From the NCBI RefSeq assembly GCF_024700885.2, contig NZ_CP117016.1: a DNA stretch of 64,000 nucleotides; one strand, given 5' to 3'. The notes below the pieces were generated by a model, which did no database searches, was not told the origin of the DNA, and saw only the letters and a program-made list of their open reading frames with translations. Position 1 is the stretch's first letter, and each line of letters opens with the position of its first letter. The translations under genes and the position numbers were made by a program. Shown in pieces: positions 46,923 to 51,391 of the stretch. This DNA comes from Escherichia coli (lineage in GTDB: Bacteria; Pseudomonadota; Gammaproteobacteria; Enterobacterales; Enterobacteriaceae).

Positions 46923-47690
46923 ATGAAATGTATGAAATGGATGTGGATTGTGTCATCAAAAATACTTTTATCCCTTAGTTTTTTTTCATTTGCAAATGAA
47001 CAAGTGTTTGGAAATGTTGAAAACAATTCAAAGGTATTTTCTTTGCGTTTAGATACAACCCGTGTTGTCTATAACCAAGGTTCGTCTGGAGAAACATTGG
47101 CAGTCATTAATGAGCATGATTATCCGATATTAGTTCAGGCAGAGGTGCTGCTTGAAGACCAAAGAACTCCAGCGCCTTTTGTAATAACGCCACCACTGTT
47201 TCGGCTTGATGCTCTACAATCTAGTCGTCTTCGTATTATTCAAACTGGAGGTGATTTCCCGACAGATCGTGAAACTCTACAGTGGGTTTGTATAAAGGGG
47301 ATCCCGCCGAAAGTTGATGATAAGTGGGCTGAGGAAAATAGTAAGAATAAAGATGGTACAGATAAAGTAGCTCTAGACATACAAGTTTCTGTTAAAAGTT
47401 GCATTAAATTATTTGTCCGTCCGAAAATGGTGAAAGGTCATCCAGATGACGTTGCCGAAAATGTAAAATGGCAGAAGGTTGGTAATAGGTTGAAAGGAGT
47501 AAACCCAACACCGTTCTATATAAATCTTGCGGAATTGAAAGTGGGCGAAAAAGAAATACTGGAGCGTCATTATATAGCGCCATTTGGCTCTTATGAATAT
47601 CCTATCGATATGAATTGGAAGGGGGGGGTTACATGGAGAATAGTGACCGATTATGGTGGGATCAGTAACCAATTTGAAGCAAAGCTTTAA
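46923..47690 (+). CDS. Periplasmic pilus chaperone (PapD-like; AfaB/AggD-type)
   Basis: 255 aa with signal peptide; chaperone fold motifs (RVVYNQGSSGETLAVINEHDYPILVQA.., C-terminal domain with conserved W); first gene of a chaperone-usher operon. Confidence 0.85.
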   Translation: MKCMKWMWIVSSKILLSLSFFSFANEQVFGNVENNSKVFSLRLDTTRVVYNQGSSGETLAVINEHDYPILVQAEVLLEDQRTPAPFVITPPLFRLDALQSSRLRIIQTGGDFPTDRETLQWVCIKGIPPKVDDKWAEENSKNKDGTDKVALDIQVSVKSCIKLFVRPKMVKGHPDDVAENVKWQKVGNRLKGVNPTPFYINLAELKVGEKEILERHYIAPFGSYEYPIDMNWKGGVTWRIVTDYGGISNQFEAKL

Positions 47691-47720
47691 GCTTGATGAA
47701 TTTTTTTTGTGAATAAAATT

Positions 47721-50315
47721 ATGAAAGAATACATCTGTAATGCCTCTCTATGCAGTACATCTTTGTGTACTCAAAAAAATAAGCTCTCATATACAACATT
47801 ATTTATAATAATTATATCTTCATTTTTTTATGTGGGGGATGTGGCAGCACGTTCGTATTCGTTTGACGCATCATTATTAAACGGAGGTGGTAAAGGGGTA
47901 GATTTGAGGTTACTTGAAAATGGAGGACAACTACCTGGTATCTATCCAGTTGATATTATTTTGAATGGTGCCCATGTTGAATCAAGAGATATGTTTTTTC
48001 ATACAGGGAGAGATATACATGGAAAAGATTATCTAAAGGCCTGTTTGACCAAGGAAATGTTAATACGTTATGGAGTAAAAGTTGAAGAATATCCCGGTCT
48101 TTTTCGAATTGATAGTGAAAAGGAACGAGGTAGAGATATTTGTGCTGACTTATCAGTAATACCTCAAGCTACAGAATATTATCGATTCCTATCACAGCAA
48201 TTAATAATTGGAATTCCGCAGGTGGCAATTCGTCCATCATTGACAGGAATTGCACCTGAAGTAATGTGGGATGATGGTATCGATGCATTTGTAGTGAATT
48301 GGCAGGCGGAAGCGAGTCGTTTTGACTATAGAGGCTACGGCAGGAATTCTTCAGATAATTTTTGGTCCAGTTTTGAACCGGGGATTAATATAGGCGCTTG
48401 GCGCCTCAGAAATCTAACTACTTGGAATAAATCATCTGGACAATCGGGTAAATGGGATAGTTCATATATACGGGCTGAACGTGGATTGAACAGCATTAGA
48501 AGTCGTTTGACTTTAGGTGAAGGCTATTCTCCTGCGGATATTTTTGACAGTGTTCCTTTCCGGGGAGGAATGTTAGGAACTGATGAATATATGATTCCAT
48601 ATAATCAGCGGGAGTTTGCGCCAGTGGTAAGAGGAATAGCTCGAACTCAAGCCCGAATTGAAGTACGTCAAAATGGGTATCTGATACATAGTCAGATAGT
48701 TGCACCGGGGGCTTTTGCTTTGAACGACCTTCCGGTGACAGGCTCCAGTGATGATTTACAAGTGGCAATTCTGGAATCAGATGGCACTATACAGTCCTTT
48801 AAAATACCCTTCACTTTGCCGGCTATTGCTCTACGTGAAGGATATCTAAAGTATAATGTAACCGTAGGGCAATATCGGCCATCGGATAGTGGGGGGGAAA
48901 AAGCATACTTGGCGCAATCGACTGTTATGTATGGTTTACCATGGGGGGTGACGGCATTTGCTGGAGTTCAGGGGGCCGAACATTATCGGGCTGGTGCACT
49001 GGGGTTAGGATTGTCGCTGGGGAATTTCGGTGCTATGTCACTAGATACCATTTATTCTCGAGGGCAACAAAAGGGATATGATTATGAAACAGGACAAACT
49101 TGGCGTATTCGTTACGACAAGTCCTTTGGACTGACAGGAACCAGTTTTGCGGCTGCGAGTTATCAATATTCAGGTGAAAATTATCACACATTAGCGGATG
49201 TTTTGAATACTTATAATAATGTCACTAGCCTCATAGACAGGAATTTTGATAACAAAACTCGTCGGATTACTATGAATATAAACCAGCCTCTTGGCCGTTG
49301 GGGGTATGTGGGGTTGAATGGAGGACGTGATGTATATCGTAGTAAACCAAATCAAGATTATATTGGAGCGTCTTATAGTACTTCATGGAAAAATATTTCC
49401 CTTTCATTAAATTGGTCACGGAATCTTAATCTTGGGAACTGCAACGGTAGACGTTTCTGTACAGAGGATAATTTCAACATGTGGATAAGTGTTCCTCTGC
49501 AGCGCTGGTGGGGGGGATATGATAATGATATCTATGCCACGGCACAGATGCAGCGTTCAACCAGACAAAACTCCAGTTATGAAGTAGGCTTGAGTGGACG
49601 CGCTTTTGAAAGAAAATTGAACTGGGATGTTAGTGAGCAGATAGTACCAGGTAGCAAATATGATGCAGATACAGGTCGGTTAAAGTTACGTTGGTCTGGA
49701 ACCTATGGCGAATTGGCGGGAATGTATAGTTATAATACTAACACCCGTCAGATGAACCTAGGGATGTCTGGAAGTATGGTTATGCATAGCGAAGGTCTAA
49801 CTTTCGGTCAGAGAACTGGAGACACGATAGGCTTGATTGTTGCTCCGGATGTAGCAGGGGCTTCAGTCAGCGGCTGGCCTGGTGTAAGTACAGGCTCCCG
49901 TGGATATGGGGTGGTAGGTTATGTATCACCATACCAGGAAAATGTCCTCACACTGGATCCGACGACTTTCCCTGAAAATGTAGAAGTCCCACAGACAGAT
50001 AGTCGTGTTGTTCCGACGAAAGGAGCAGTTGTCCGGGCTGAATTTAAGACCCGAGTGGGAAAACGTGCTGTGCTGAATCTGATCCGTAAAGATGGAACGC
50101 GTTTACCATTCGGTACAGTGATAACCTTGGAAGGAAAAGTATCCGGTTCTGTAGGGGTGGTAGATGACAAGGGGGCTGTGTATCTGAGTGGCCTGTCTGA
50201 AACAGGAAAACTAAAGGCACAGTGGGGAAGGAATAGTCAATGCTATGCAGACTACATTCTTCCAAAAGAAAAGGGGCCAGCCGGAGTTTTTTTAACAAAT
50301 GCGGTATGCATATGA
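47721..50315 (+). CDS. Outer-membrane fimbrial usher (AfaC/AggC-type)
   Basis: About 865 aa; usher N-terminal plug/barrel signatures (LPGIYPVDIILNG..) and typical length. Confidence 0.85.
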   Translation: MKEYICNASLCSTSLCTQKNKLSYTTLFIIIISSFFYVGDVAARSYSFDASLLNGGGKGVDLRLLENGGQLPGIYPVDIILNGAHVESRDMFFHTGRDIHGKDYLKACLTKEMLIRYGVKVEEYPGLFRIDSEKERGRDICADLSVIPQATEYYRFLSQQLIIGIPQVAIRPSLTGIAPEVMWDDGIDAFVVNWQAEASRFDYRGYGRNSSDNFWSSFEPGINIGAWRLRNLTTWNKSSGQSGKWDSSYIRAERGLNSIRSRLTLGEGYSPADIFDSVPFRGGMLGTDEYMIPYNQREFAPVVRGIARTQARIEVRQNGYLIHSQIVAPGAFALNDLPVTGSSDDLQVAILESDGTIQSFKIPFTLPAIALREGYLKYNVTVGQYRPSDSGGEKAYLAQSTVMYGLPWGVTAFAGVQGAEHYRAGALGLGLSLGNFGAMSLDTIYSRGQQKGYDYETGQTWRIRYDKSFGLTGTSFAAASYQYSGENYHTLADVLNTYNNVTSLIDRNFDNKTRRITMNINQPLGRWGYVGLNGGRDVYRSKPNQDYIGASYSTSWKNISLSLNWSRNLNLGNCNGRRFCTEDNFNMWISVPLQRWWGGYDNDIYATAQMQRSTRQNSSYEVGLSGRAFERKLNWDVSEQIVPGSKYDADTGRLKLRWSGTYGELAGMYSYNTNTRQMNLGMSGSMVMHSEGLTFGQRTGDTIGLIVAPDVAGASVSGWPGVSTGSRGYGVVGYVSPYQENVLTLDPTTFPENVEVPQTDSRVVPTKGAVVRAEFKTRVGKRAVLNLIRKDGTRLPFGTVITLEGKVSGSVGVVDDKGAVYLSGLSETGKLKAQWGRNSQCYADYILPKEKGPAGVFLTNAVCI

Positions 50316-50330
50316 CTGGAGTAAGAAATA

Positions 50331-50765
50331 ATGAGATACCGTATAATGTCTTTATCCTGTGTAGTGTTTCTGATGATAGGAGGACTGTCTCAGGCTGCAG
50401 AGATTACGTTAGTAAGCCACAGGAGTACGGGAAGTCAGTTACGTGATGGCATGATACTGGCGACAGGACGAATTATCTGTCGGGAAATACATACAGGGTT
50501 TCAGATATGGATGAATGATCGTCAAGAGGGAGGACATCCGAGGCATTATGTTATACAAAATAGTAAAGGAAACCAAGGCGAGTTACGGGTCAGGATAGGC
50601 GGTAATAGCTGGTTTTCTTCTTTGGATGAAGAATGGCAGGGGTGGATCAGGCTAGGAAAGGAAAAACAAGTTAATTTTGATGTGATAGTCGATGGAGAAC
50701 AGTATATTCCTCCAGGTAAATATATATTCTCAGTAAGTGGTAAATGTATGGCATCAGAGATATAA
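50331..50765 (+). CDS. AfaD/AggB-like invasin / minor tip subunit
   Basis: 144 aa; AEITLVSHRSTGSQLRDGMILATGRIICREIHTGFQIWMNDRQ..QYIPPGKYIFSVSGKC resembles AfaD/DraD/AggB. Confidence 0.7.
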   Translation: MRYRIMSLSCVVFLMIGGLSQAAEITLVSHRSTGSQLRDGMILATGRIICREIHTGFQIWMNDRQEGGHPRHYVIQNSKGNQGELRVRIGGNSWFSSLDEEWQGWIRLGKEKQVNFDVIVDGEQYIPPGKYIFSVSGKCMASEI

Positions 50766-50875
50766 GAGTATGTGTCTACTGATACTATTTTGATTTTTAT
50801 AATATTTCATATTAATTGTATGGAAAATATTATTTCTATTTAAGTAGTAGTTAATGTTATTTAAGAGAGGTTTAT

Positions 50876-51391
50876 ATGAAAAAGAGTATCTATTTCATTA
50901 TATGTCCAGTTCTTTCTCTATATTGTGGAATGACGATGGCTAAAACATCACCACCGTCAACTACTATTTCTAGTGATAGCACTGCATTTGCGCAAGGTAC
51001 GATCGTAATAACTAACAATTGTAAGGTTAGTATCACCACCCCTACAAAAATTGAACGTCCTGCTACAGAGGCCACAAAAACTGATTACGTGACTTTTAAT
51101 ATTACTCAAACTCCGTCTTGTGCAAATATAGGCTCCAGAATTGCTTATTGGTCTGAAGGAAGTCAGTCAGCTTTTCGTATGGTCAATACAAGTAATCCTA
51201 CTTCATTTTACACTTTTCAAACCGTTAGCGAATCTCCTGCAACAGATACAAGATATGGGGGGGGTAAAATGTATGGGCTAGCTCGTGCAGGGGTTCGGAG
51301 CCTAAATGTAAGTATCCAAATTCCCCAAGCAAATAATTATCTTCCTGGTCAATATACAATTGGTCTTAACGCAGGCTTGGTCATAAACTAA
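50876..51391 (+). CDS. Putative major adhesin/pilin subunit (Afa/Dr-AAF family)
   Basis: 171 aa with signal peptide and two cysteines (NCKVS..PSCANIG), last gene of the chaperone-usher operon. Confidence 0.55.
   Translation: MKKSIYFIICPVLSLYCGMTMAKTSPPSTTISSDSTAFAQGTIVITNNCKVSITTPTKIERPATEATKTDYVTFNITQTPSCANIGSRIAYWSEGSQSAFRMVNTSNPTSFYTFQTVSESPATDTRYGGGKMYGLARAGVRSLNVSIQIPQANNYLPGQYTIGLNAGLVIN

Follow-up and report, generated by a model that had tools for sequence, protein, structure and literature searches.

We analyzed a 64-kb stretch of E. coli DNA (the window), which is a 100% match to the chromosome of E. coli MLI114. Four intact open reading frames for a chaperone, an usher, an AfaD/AggB-like minor subunit and a pilin lie on one strand at 46923-51391:

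46923-47690, + strand: AggD-like periplasmic chaperone, 255 aa, PapD_N/PapD_C domains (RefSeq start 46932)
47709-50315, + strand: AggC-like outer-membrane usher, 868 aa from a GTG (RefSeq start at ATG 47721), usher Pfam domains
50331-50765, + strand: AfaD/AggB-like minor (tip) subunit, 144 aa, Pfam AfaD
50876-51391, + strand: major pilin, 171 aa, Shine-Dalgarno GAGAGG before ATG 50876

This gene set, including the 144-residue product, is as described in an earlier sequence-only reading of the DNA, and its order and sizes match those of aggDCBA. Because the set is long, intact and homologous, a chance pattern of reading frames is excluded. RefSeq calls the first three products fimbrial chaperone, usher and "AfaD family invasin"; the pilin is listed as a "hypothetical protein". 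The chaperone shares 68%, 66% and 65% identity with AggD, Agg3D and AafD, and the usher 70%, 68% and 69% with AggC, Agg3C and AafC; the nearest NCBIfam models for the pair are SafB/SafC and SefB/SefC. Among PDB sequences, the minor subunit matches AggB first (4PHX, E = 1e-41), then AafB, HdaB, AfaD and DraD. All four genes are intact in each of the seven lineages checked. The chaperone, usher and minor subunit are under purifying selection (dN/dS 0.16-0.35), and the minor subunit is almost invariant, with at most one amino-acid change over seven lineages.

The pilin has a signal peptide (residues 1-22) and a basic, hypervariable mature region of 149 residues (pI 9.2), with an N-terminal donor strand of alternating invariant residues (A37, A39, G41, I43 and I45). 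It showed no Pfam match, including none to the Dr adhesins. Searches matched only Agg5A, AafA and AggA among plasmids (tblastn) and only AggA (4PH8), AafA (2MPV) and 5LVY among PDB sequences. The top three Foldseek matches of an AlphaFold model, whose core pLDDT was mostly 60-87 by 10-residue block, were likewise AggA, AafA and 5LVY. The pilin shares 25-30% identity with AAF pilins and resembles them in pI (9.2-9.5 against 9.1-9.3), in contrast to two Afa-like pilins (4.7-5.0). The earlier reading had labeled the operon Afa/Dr-AAF-type. The AAF half of this label stands, as the 50876-51391 product groups with the AAF side, whereas the Afa/Dr half does not fit a basic pilin that lacks a Dr-adhesin match.

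Comparison of the assembly proteins reveals 54-70% identity to those of AAF/I, II and III/V, which is the distance between those variants, and 43-59% identity to an Afa-8-like cluster that carries a PapB-type regulator. In a neighbor-joining tree of chaperone, usher and minor subunit, built from a small set of taxa that included no classical afa/dra operon, the window nested within the AAF group in all 200 bootstraps and the Afa-8-like cluster branched outside it. Judged from these sequences, the operon is AAF-type and not Afa/Dr.

The region upstream of the chaperone gene contains three features:

45203-46456, - strand: iroC remnant, N-terminus absent, frameshifted, the module's left boundary (as annotated by RefSeq in the identical MLI114 record)
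46492-46646, + strand: 155-bp IS630-family transposase fragment, 91% to ISSpu2-family IS630 elements, annotated as partial IS630 transposase
46826-46864, + strand: predicted activator-dependent promoter, with AggR-type box GCTTTTTTATC at 46826-46836, a 22-bp spacer and -10 TATTAT at 46859-46864

The earlier reading gave the upstream sequence as the iroC deletion joint. The joint is present, with the megablast match to iroC stopping at 46456, but it is separated from the operon by the IS630 fragment plus an AT-rich 276-bp segment containing the predicted promoter. No PapI/PapB-type regulator precedes the operon, as claimed, and no PapB-type gene was found in the window (tblastn best E = 0.15). 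The earlier reading treated this as an oddity, yet it is normal for AAF operons, which never carry afaA/afaF and use a single AggR-dependent promoter (PMC6392122). The PLSDB gene tables, which are incomplete, also list no regulator gene within about 800 bp 5' of the chaperone in plasmid AAF/I and AAF/V loci.

We scanned for boxes using the published AggR criteria, WWWWWWWTATC-N21-23-(-10) (PMC6392122). As a positive control, it picked up the sites mapped by experiment in strain 042 for aafD, aap, aggR and aatP, and it had a chance rate of 0.08-0.13 per 200-bp upstream region; the motif is degenerate, with 37 matches on both strands of the 64-kb window. Predicted boxes precede the chaperone, dispersin-like and aatP-like genes by 81-109 bp (86 bp for the chaperone ATG); upstream of the regulator gene, no clean box spaced 21-23 bp from a -10 was seen. 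A generic sigma-70 scan also marks 46836-46864, where a sigma-70-like pair (CTGACG-17-TATTAT) overlaps the box. Its -35 is poor (4/6), as is usual for activator-dependent promoters. Outside the box, the upstream regions showed little alignment to AAF promoters, and AT-rich promoters readily acquire AggR dependence (PMC6392122). Over the 276 bp, the two other island copies that were aligned are 98.5-99.5% identical, and the layout from IS630 fragment to chaperone is the same in six further lineages.

Downstream of the pilin lie the remaining parts of the module:

51797-51807, + strand: predicted AggR-type box GTTTTATTATC, upstream of the dispersin-like gene
51917-52264, + strand: dispersin-like gene (51797-52264 with box), 115 aa, mature start GGGGW, Pfam Dispersin PF28204
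54111-54121, + strand: predicted AggR-type box AATAATTTATC, upstream of the aatP-like gene
54203-59135, + strand: aatPABCD-like dispersin export/acylation operon (54111-59135 with box), by homology to strain 042 Aat
62541-63338, + strand: Rns/AggR-family AraC-type activator, 265 aa, candidate module regulator

Relative to strain 042, the dispersin-like protein is 63% identical to Aap, and AatP, A, B, C and D are 58%, 52%, 59%, 71% and 51% identical. The activator gene starts 11.15 kb past the pilin stop. Its product is 37% identical to AggR overall, with a far better conserved C-terminal DNA-binding half, and 36-44% identical to CfaD and other plasmid-borne relatives; it is a singleton among 5.8 billion proteins, the next relatives being 44-45% identical. 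Its probable DNA specificity is deduced solely from the conserved helix-turn-helix regions. The earlier suggestion that expression depends on this AggR/Rns-like regulator fits the AggR box plus -10, but we only infer such control, because the activator is 37% identical to AggR. An Aar/ANR partner was not found within the window. Carriers examined in full keep the fimbrial, dispersin, Aat and regulator genes together; SW4848 has lost the aat operon and has a cut dispersin gene, and it retains the regulator. The island is rich in IS fragments (IS630, IS481, IS66, IS3 and IS5 pieces) and iro pseudogenes (iroN, iroE and iroC remnants). The chromosomal location, the complete diverged dispersin/Aat/regulator module and the hypervariable pilin had been overlooked in the earlier reading.

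Of 5426 complete E. coli genomes, 53 carry the locus, all of them on the chromosome. Carriers include Escherich's NCTC86, where IS3 cuts the usher, and AREA_499, where IS66 interrupts it; nearly all listed carrier genomes have the expected features annotated. The islands are approximately 99.5% identical to each other, and variation is confined to the mature-pilin codons, a pattern of selection newly found here. Pilin dN reaches 0.23 with dN/dS of 2-4 (pairwise Nei-Gojobori, on non-independent alleles and ignoring recombination), and pN-pS exceeds zero in eight of nine allele pairs (bootstrap P <= 0.003). Amino-acid variation occurs at 80 of 172 codons (47%) and solely synonymous variation at 5, with a dense variable run at 50942-51385, from the first mature codon to just short of the stop. 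The core and donor-strand residues are invariant, the signal peptide is untouched and no allele contains a stop; the NCTC86 allele is one amino acid from a modern allele. These data indicate strong diversifying selection on the exposed, mature part of the pilin, in an island that is otherwise close to clonal. Diversification of the exposed pilin in a near-clonal island implies that the fiber is made and seen by hosts, phages or competitors.

We conclude that the operon is a new, so far unnamed AAF-family lineage within a chromosomal AggR-regulon-like module. It probably represents an intact chaperone-usher operon of this distinct lineage, belonging to an activator-driven module and carrying a diversifying pilin. 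By homology, the AggD-like chaperone would catch subunits in the periplasm, the AggC-like usher would polymerize the basic 149-residue pilin via N-terminal donor-strand exchange, and the AfaD/AggB-like subunit would cap the fiber. We propose that transcription starts from the activator-dependent promoter (box 46826-46836, -10 46859-46864) and that the product of the activator gene at 62541-63338 switches this promoter on. PapI/PapB-type genes beside the operon would be needless, since the linked activator would drive the promoter. The operon forms one element of a diverged, self-contained version of the pAA "AggR regulon" that comprises fimbria, dispersin-like lipoprotein, Aat exporter/acylase and Rns/AggR-family activator. 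Sticky fibers of this kind are normally plasmid-borne in diarrhea-causing enteroaggregative E. coli. Standard virulence typing misses the operon because it is diverged, unnamed and chromosomal, with a fast-evolving pilin.

It is unlikely that the operon is expressed without the linked AraC-family gene, either from the sigma-70-like promoter alone or through a Rns/AggR-family protein in trans, such as AggR of a co-resident pAA. The overlapping sigma-70-like pair, a degenerate box of a kind that AT-rich promoters easily gain (PMC6392122), and a regulator that is separated from the operon by 11 kb with several IS elements and shares only 37% identity with AggR would suit such expression, but the box-plus-(-10) layout stands before all three module transcription units, the module genes stay linked, SW4848 keeps the regulator despite its aat loss, and the -35 has the poor match usual for activator-dependent promoters. 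We also consider it rather improbable that this intact operon is a cryptic or decaying relic, no longer expressed because it is silenced or has no functional activation circuit. The surrounding pseudogenes and IS fragments, the interrupted ushers of NCTC86 (IS3) and AREA_499 (IS66), the SW4848 deletion and cut dispersin gene, the judgment of Dunne et al. (PMC5382810) that the NCTC86 locus is non-functional and the fact that MLI114 is not recognized as EAEC all point that way. Decay, however, predicts stops and dN/dS of about 1, whereas the pilin shows 2-4, no stops and a preserved signal peptide, donor strand and core; the other three genes are under purifying selection, and the four reading frames are intact in seven lineages, with features annotated in nearly all listed genomes.

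Two further readings concern the identity of the operon. An Afa/Dr-type operon stripped of afaA/afaF by the deletion that made the iroC joint would share the afaBCDE-like product set, the RefSeq "AfaD family invasin" and the upstream rearrangement, and the Afa-8-like plasmid cluster does have a PapB-type gene directly upstream. This is very improbable given the bootstrap placement of the assembly genes in the AAF clade, a basic pilin matching AAF pilins only, the conserved 276-bp promoter DNA and shared layout, and the lack, in the available gene tables, of a regulator listed next to the plasmid AAF loci. We regard as least credible a CS22-like cluster, known from AAF-negative EAEC, although Boisen et al. 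described four genes in aggR-positive strains (chaperone, usher, "AfaD-like" subunit and pilin) with annotation to SefB and SefC, which are among the nearest NCBIfam models here. Primers and the published description set it apart: neither published cseA primer is present, even at 3 mismatches; the CS22-like pilin has a reported pI of 6.0 and no more than 14% similarity to AAF pilins, against pI 9.2 and 25-30% identity here; and those clusters are plasmid-borne beside true aggR and aar, while this locus is chromosomal, with a 37% identical regulator and no aar found in the window.

Comparison with known systems places the operon in the same FGL chaperone-usher superfamily as the Afa/Dr operons (afaABCDE, draABCDE and the Afa-8-like plasmid cluster L005), with an AfaD/DraD-type subunit that matches the AfaD and DraD structures at E = 1e-35. 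It differs in having no PapB/PapI-type regulator and a basic, not acidic, pilin without a Dr/Afa match, and its assembly genes do not join the Afa-8-like branch. For Dr adhesins, Korotkova et al. (2007, Mol Microbiol) reportedly described strong positive selection on the adhesin subunit. AAF/I-V (aggDCBA, aafDA/aafCB, agg3DCBA, agg4/hdaDCBA and agg3DCB-agg5A) have the same chaperone-usher-minor-major order, and the identities of assembly proteins and pilin equal the spreads between these named variants. The pilins are alike in basic charge, two cysteines and N-terminal donor strand, with AggA and AafA nearest in fold. AAF/I-V likewise lack an adjacent PapI/PapB regulator, have an AggR-type box 22 bp upstream of the -10 and are linked to a dispersin gene and aat operon. 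They reside on the pAA plasmid, whereas the window locus is chromosomal in every carrier genome, its linked activator is diverged from AggR, no aar was found in the window, and its pilin family is unnamed, "hypothetical" and without a Pfam match.

Dunne et al. (2017, PMC5382810) noted in NCTC 86 an Aat/dispersin homologue and extra chaperone-usher loci, one homologous to the 042 AAF. The NCTC86 island is the same as that in the window, which has all four genes intact where NCTC86 has a split usher; the regulator, promoter and pilin diversity were not described there. The module defined for EAEC, ETEC and Citrobacter rodentium by Santiago et al. (2014, PMC4038620) consists of a fimbrial operon, dispersin-like protein, Aat and AraC/Rns-family activator (plus ANR/Aar). 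No ANR/Aar homologue was found in the window, and all four core components are linked within 17 kb, with predicted activator boxes preceding each transcription unit. The window thus holds a fourth, diverged version of this module (Aat 51-71%, Aap 63% and regulator 37% against strain 042).

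The fimbrial operon consists of four genes on the plus strand:

46923-47690, plus strand: periplasmic chaperone, 255 aa, with PapD_N and PapD_C domains (Pfam, identical genes in related contigs)
47709-50315, plus strand: usher, 868 aa, with PapC_N, Usher and PapC_C domains (Pfam, identical genes in related contigs)
50331-50765, plus strand: AfaD/AggB-like minor subunit, 144 aa, Pfam AfaD (identical genes in related contigs)
50876-51391, plus strand: major pilin, 171 aa, from the open reading frame

The 64 kb are 100% identical to the reverse complement of positions 3216397-3280396 of the MLI114 chromosome (NZ_CP117013.1), in which RefSeq names the four genes as chaperone, usher, 'AfaD family invasin' and 'hypothetical protein'. 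The sequence-only reading had described four genes in afaBCDE/aggDCBA-type order at 46923-51391, including a 144-aa AfaD/AggB-like product, and the open reading frames, Pfam domains and RefSeq annotation agree with it. All the components of an aggregative adherence fimbria (AAF) operon are present, namely an FGL-type chaperone, an usher, an AfaD/AggB-like minor subunit and a pilin, in an order identical to that of aggDCBA and agg3DCB-agg5A.

We compared the assembly proteins to those of plasmid-borne reference loci: AAF/I (L002), agg3DCB-agg5A (L003) and the AAF/II genes of strain 042 (L006 and L008). Identities to the AAF/I, agg3DCB-agg5A and AAF/II counterparts, respectively, were 68%, 66% and 65% for the chaperone, 70%, 68% and 69% for the usher, and 54%, 64% and 57% for the minor subunit. 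The named AAF variants share 62-68% identity among themselves in the chaperone and usher, and the window operon is equally distant. An Afa-8-like cluster with a PapB-type gene upstream (L005) lies further off (59% chaperone, 59% usher, 43% minor subunit), as does an AfaD-containing plasmid cluster (L004; about 50%, 49% and 32%). Neighbor-joining of the concatenated chaperone, usher and minor subunit (1200 ungapped columns; few taxa, with the classical afa/dra operon left out) placed the window operon in one group with AAF/I, II and III/V, apart from the Afa-8-like cluster, in all 200 bootstraps, and in none of them outside the three AAFs. Against the PDB, the minor subunit matched the solved AggB, AafB, HdaB, AfaD and DraD structures (E = 1e-41 to 1e-35).

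The pilin is far more divergent, as are AAF pilins in general. It shares 25-30% identity with AggA, Agg5A and AafA, which in the same matrix share 23-31% with one another; less than 25% identity has been reported between AAF pilin variants (Boisen et al., PMC7500659). A tblastn search with the pilin against 72,556 plasmids returned Agg5A, AafA and AggA as the only matches. By sequence, the only PDB entries at E < 0.001 were AggA (4PH8), AafA (2MPV) and 5LVY, the AggA match having E = 9.5e-7, or 4.8e-8 with a profile. The AlphaFold model of the pilin has a mean pLDDT of 65, with the core mostly at 60-87 by 10-residue block, and residues 1-46 are disordered, which fits a subunit without its complementing strand. 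A Foldseek search of the PDB with this model placed the same three structures at the top. Dr/Afa adhesins were absent from both the PDB sequence matches and the top fold matches, and Pfam assigned the pilin to zero families, even at E <= 10, so it carries no Dr-adhesin domain. The pI of the mature pilin is 9.2, other alleles ranging from 9.2 to 9.5, and its sequence has two cysteines; AggA, Agg5A and AafA agree on both counts (pI 9.1-9.3), whereas the two Afa-like pilins compared are acidic (pI 4.7-5.0). Thus, an AAF fold, a basic pI (> 8) and an N-terminal donor strand, which together characterize AAF pilins, were all found. The pilin comparison proposed by the sequence-only reading therefore falls on the AAF side: of its combined Afa/Dr-AAF label, the AAF half is borne out by the assembly proteins, the tree and the pilin matches, and the Afa/Dr half is given up, there being no Dr-adhesin match and a basic pI. 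Judged by sequence, the operon adds an unnamed new member to the AAF family and is carried by about 1% of complete E. coli genomes.

The annotated pilin start may be one reason why the family is still unnamed. RefSeq/PGAP places it at 50936, within the signal peptide, and so predicts a 'hypothetical protein' of 151 aa. A Shine-Dalgarno sequence, GAGAGG, precedes the ATG at 50876, and the product read from there has a normal signal peptide, MKKSIYFIICPVLSLYCGMTMA. Every pilin homologue in a large protein collection was unnamed or 'hypothetical'.

A CS22-like cluster was considered and rejected. Both published cseA primers are absent from the window at <=3 mismatches, and the CS22-like pilin is described as having a pI of 6.0 and <=14% similarity to AAF pilins (PMC7500659), compared to a pI of 9.2 here; the separation is made by primers and published description (pI, similarity). 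Separately, L004 (plasmid NZ_CP042879.1, 5905-10267) is itself a four-gene chaperone/usher/AfaD/pilin cluster with an acidic pilin (pI 5.0), on a plasmid that also carries an FtsX/ABC transporter pair and an AraC-like gene. Its pilin signal peptide ends in ...ANAAT, resembling the translated cseA forward primer, and so L004 may be a relative of CS22.

Next, we examined variation among ten sequences, the window and nine other carriers of the island (L009, L010 and L012-L018). Contigs whose pilin alleles are only 69% and 77% identical in protein share the island, including iro remnants and IS fragments, at ~99.5% identity to the window over 20 kb, with the exception of the pilin gene at 76-94% nucleotide identity. 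The dense variable run extends from nucleotide 50942, the first mature codon, to 51385, two codons before the stop, and holds 139 variable sites in about 445 bp, compared to roughly 1 per 50 bp in the flanks. Amino acids vary at 80 of 172 pilin codons and 5 of 172 are purely synonymous, while amino-acid variation affects 1.4-1.6% of codons in neighbouring genes. By codon position, 111 variable sites lie at positions 1 and 2 and 28 at position 3. Pairwise Nei-Gojobori estimates gave dN <=0.23 and dS <=0.10, with dN/dS of 2-4 in most allele pairs, versus dN of 0.001-0.003 and dN/dS of 0.16-0.36 for the chaperone, usher, minor subunit and aatP; iroD was dropped as a neutral reference because a frameshifted copy distorts the estimate. 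pN-pS exceeded zero in eight of the nine pairs tested (codon bootstrap, P <= 0.003), and the four closest allele pairs listed differ by 16 non-synonymous and 0 synonymous changes in total. The pilin is under exceptionally strong diversifying selection.

The distribution of this variation follows the architecture of the subunit. It is low in the signal peptide (1 of 22 residues) and highest in loops (65%), and in the N-terminal extension variable positions alternate with the invariant A37, A39, G41, I43 and I45, as expected of a donor strand whose buried face fits into the neighbouring subunit. The tip subunit is almost invariant across lineages.

The most economical interpretation is that an exposed, expressed fibre has long been under diversifying selection, whether or not short-patch recombination also took part. 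Comparable selection is reported for Dr adhesins (Korotkova et al. 2007). Ancient divergence of the alleles alone is an unlikely source of the pattern given the five purely synonymous codons in 172; at codons with a conserved amino acid, synonymous variation is 5.4% in the pilin and 1.3-3.2% in neighbouring genes. A diversity-generating retroelement or silent cassette is also unlikely: blastn (word size 7) located no second copy or template repeat in the window, the median of one pilin copy per genome argues against either device, and the allele of NCTC86, isolated in 1885, is one residue off modern alleles. Adenine is involved in just 67% of pairwise differences, so the changes are not A-restricted, and the group II intron maturase fragment at 59195-59647 is a leftover and no reverse transcriptase. 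A local mutagenic mechanism aimed at the pilin codons is unlikely, lacking a template repeat or second copy and facing an 1885 allele almost unchanged today. Diversifying selection also bears on whether the operon is a decaying relic, intact but cryptic and no longer expressed, against which the pattern of pilin variation is the best available argument.

The operon is followed on the same strand by homologues of other members of the AggR regulon:

51917-52264, plus strand: dispersin-like gene, product 63% identical to Aap of 042, Pfam Dispersin
54203-59135, plus strand: aatPABCD-like operon, products 58%, 52%, 59%, 71% and 51% identical to AatP, A, B, C and D of 042
62541-63338, plus strand: AraC-family activator gene, beginning 11.15 kb past the pilin stop

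The mature dispersin-like protein begins GGGGW, compared to GGSGW in Aap. The activator is 37% identical to AggR overall, with both helix-turn-helix regions well kept (e.g. SEVSVRKRL against SEITIRKRL), and 36-44% identical to CfaD and other plasmid-borne relatives; its nearest further relatives in a collection of 5.8 billion proteins reach 44-45%. An ANR/Aar anti-activator was not found in the 64-kb window by tblastn with Aar and a second ANR protein of 042 (best E = 0.89).

Upstream of the operon, iroC is truncated and frameshifted and ends at 46456; an IS630-family fragment of 155 bp (46492-46646) and then 276 bp of AT-rich DNA follow. The iroC deletion joint had been taken as the upstream sequence, which does not hold, since the IS630 fragment and the 276 bp intervene and the promoter region is intact and not replaced. 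The accompanying observation that no PapI/PapB-type regulator precedes the chaperone gene proved correct: tblastn of the whole window with the PapB-type protein of the Afa-8-like cluster found none (best E = 0.15). This absence is real but is not an anomaly. The AAF/I and AAF/V plasmid loci likewise have no listed regulator gene within ~800 bp upstream of the chaperone gene in the PLSDB gene tables, which are incomplete, and AAF operons ordinarily lack adjacent PapI/PapB genes.

Yasir et al. (PMC6392122) showed that AAF operons contain one AggR site each, WWWWWWWTATC, separated by 21-22 bp from the -10 element downstream of it. We scanned the window by the search rule of that study, with the published box-to-(-10) range of 21-23 bp. 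Plus-strand matches lie directly upstream of all three transcription units of the module:

46826-46836, plus strand: predicted box GCTTTTTTATC of the chaperone unit, spacer 22, -10 TATTAT at 46859-46864, 86 bp to the ATG
51797-51807, plus strand: predicted box GTTTTATTATC of the dispersin-like unit, spacer 22, -10 TAGTAT, 109 bp to the ATG
54111-54121, plus strand: predicted box AATAATTTATC of the aatP-like unit, spacer 22, -10 TATTCT, 81 bp to the ATG

The same script recovered the published aafD, aap, aggR and aatP sites of 042, and a generic sigma-70 scan separately flagged 46836-46864. The motif is degenerate, with 37 matches on both strands of the window, and the chance of a match is 0.08-0.13 per shuffled 200-bp upstream region, giving ~1e-3 for all three if independent. 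Outside the box, the upstream region has little similarity to AAF promoters and gave no convincing alignment. We therefore dropped promoter homology and limit our claim to architecture. Since the box is degenerate, the promoter alignment weak and the activator just 37% identical to AggR, control of the operon by the linked activator is something we infer, with good motivation; the suggestion of the sequence-only reading that expression may depend on the downstream Rns/AggR-like activator still stands as likely.

A perfect AggR-type box, TTTTTATTATC, at 62348-62358, ~180 bp upstream of the activator gene, may serve in autoregulation; its spacing to the closest -10-like hexamer (TATACA, 62383-62388) is 24 bp, slightly more than the published 21-23 bp. 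A simple scan found no terminator 3' of the pilin gene. In the AAF/I plasmid (L002, NZ_AP028871.1), a long tandem run of GTTCAA hexamers lies directly upstream of aggD at about 5930-6000, and the promoter scan found no AggR box with proper spacing upstream of aggD. If variable in length, this repeat could alter the promoter geometry in the style of phase variation.

The operon adjoins a degraded salmochelin (iro) cluster (40634-46456), in which iroN is cut by an IS150-family element, iroE is frameshifted, iroC is truncated and frameshifted, and iroD (43870-45099) is apparently intact. Every carrier examined has these same iro remnants next to the fimbrial operon, so that the island was probably put together a single time. 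It starts near a tyrosine integrase gene (10294-11496) just past phoH; the window holds no tRNA genes. The stretch 10294-27812 also encodes a large AAA-domain protein and a 'TOTE conflict system' primase fragment, and an 'enterotoxin' gene (25923-27812) adjoins malX- and malY-like genes. Between aatD and an IS481-family transposase gene, a minus-strand ORF (59195-59647) has a group II intron maturase-specific domain (GIIM) only and looks like an intron remnant without the reverse transcriptase domain.

Of 5426 complete E. coli genomes, 52 carry the 5.9-kb region at 98-100% identity, and none of the PLSDB plasmids does. With the pilin region as query, 53 genomes had 54 places, all chromosomal, with a median of one copy per genome. 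Carriers come from human stool, clinical isolates, dogs, cats, chicken, wastewater, river water and soil, and include NCTC86, Escherich's 1885 isolate, in which an IS3-family element splits the usher (L012, NZ_LT601384.1, 11620-15550). This stretch of NCTC86 has IS66/IS3 elements and M48 peptidase, type I restriction-modification and DarTG genes at the place of aat and the regulator in the window, with copies of the restriction and DarTG genes on both sides. In the lake-water isolate SW4848 (L018, NZ_CP107284.1, 5621-8789), IS3 cuts the dispersin-like gene and the whole aat operon is missing, placing the activator gene <3 kb from the pilin gene; the four fimbrial genes are intact.

Parts of this locus have been encountered previously. 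In NCTC86, Dunne et al. (PMC5382810) noted a homologue of Aat/dispersin together with further chaperone-usher loci, described as 'non-functional', one of them homologous to the AAF of 042. MLI114 was isolated in Mali from a soldier who had diarrhoea and was reported without markers of enteroaggregative E. coli (EAEC), aggR being present in another isolate only (PMC10198576). Literature searches under AAF/VI, agg6A or the RefSeq protein accessions turned up no account of this locus. EAEC is now defined at the molecular level by AggR together with any one of AAF/I-V or CS22, and a 2020 study by Boisen et al. found "no additional AAF variants". The operon shows the sequence differences that separate AAF variants, yet is invisible to gene-based typing. 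Should the fibre prove functional, some "AAF-negative" or "non-pathogenic" isolates would have to be re-classified, and diagnostic panels would need a new target. We consider it possible, though rather doubtful, that this is a working sixth AAF type with its own regulator, dispersin and exporter, and that ~1% of sequenced E. coli are 'chromosomal EAEC-like' colonisers that have so far gone unrecognised. These would then include ESBL-producing diarrhoea isolates, pet and water isolates and the lineage of Escherich's strain, and the 30-fold excess of amino-acid changes, confined to the mature pilin, would reflect an arms race, still under way, with host immunity, phages or receptors. The pilin is an unusually clean natural case of diversifying selection, with almost half of its codons varying in a nearly clonal background and the donor strand and tip subunit fixed, and its variation is useful to map exposed and functional surfaces.

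A four-part module of fimbria, dispersin-like protein, Aat and AraC activator is known from EAEC, ETEC and Citrobacter rodentium (Santiago et al., PMC4038620). The window likewise has a linked dispersin-like gene, aatPABCD and an activator of the Rns/AggR family, and the operon is embedded in a diverged, chromosomal version of the entire AggR-regulon-type module. With a functional fibre, this module would provide a natural second example of the interplay between an Rns/AggR-family activator, dispersin and a basic fimbria. The named AAFs sit on the pAA virulence plasmid, whereas this operon is chromosomal and departs from them in that respect.
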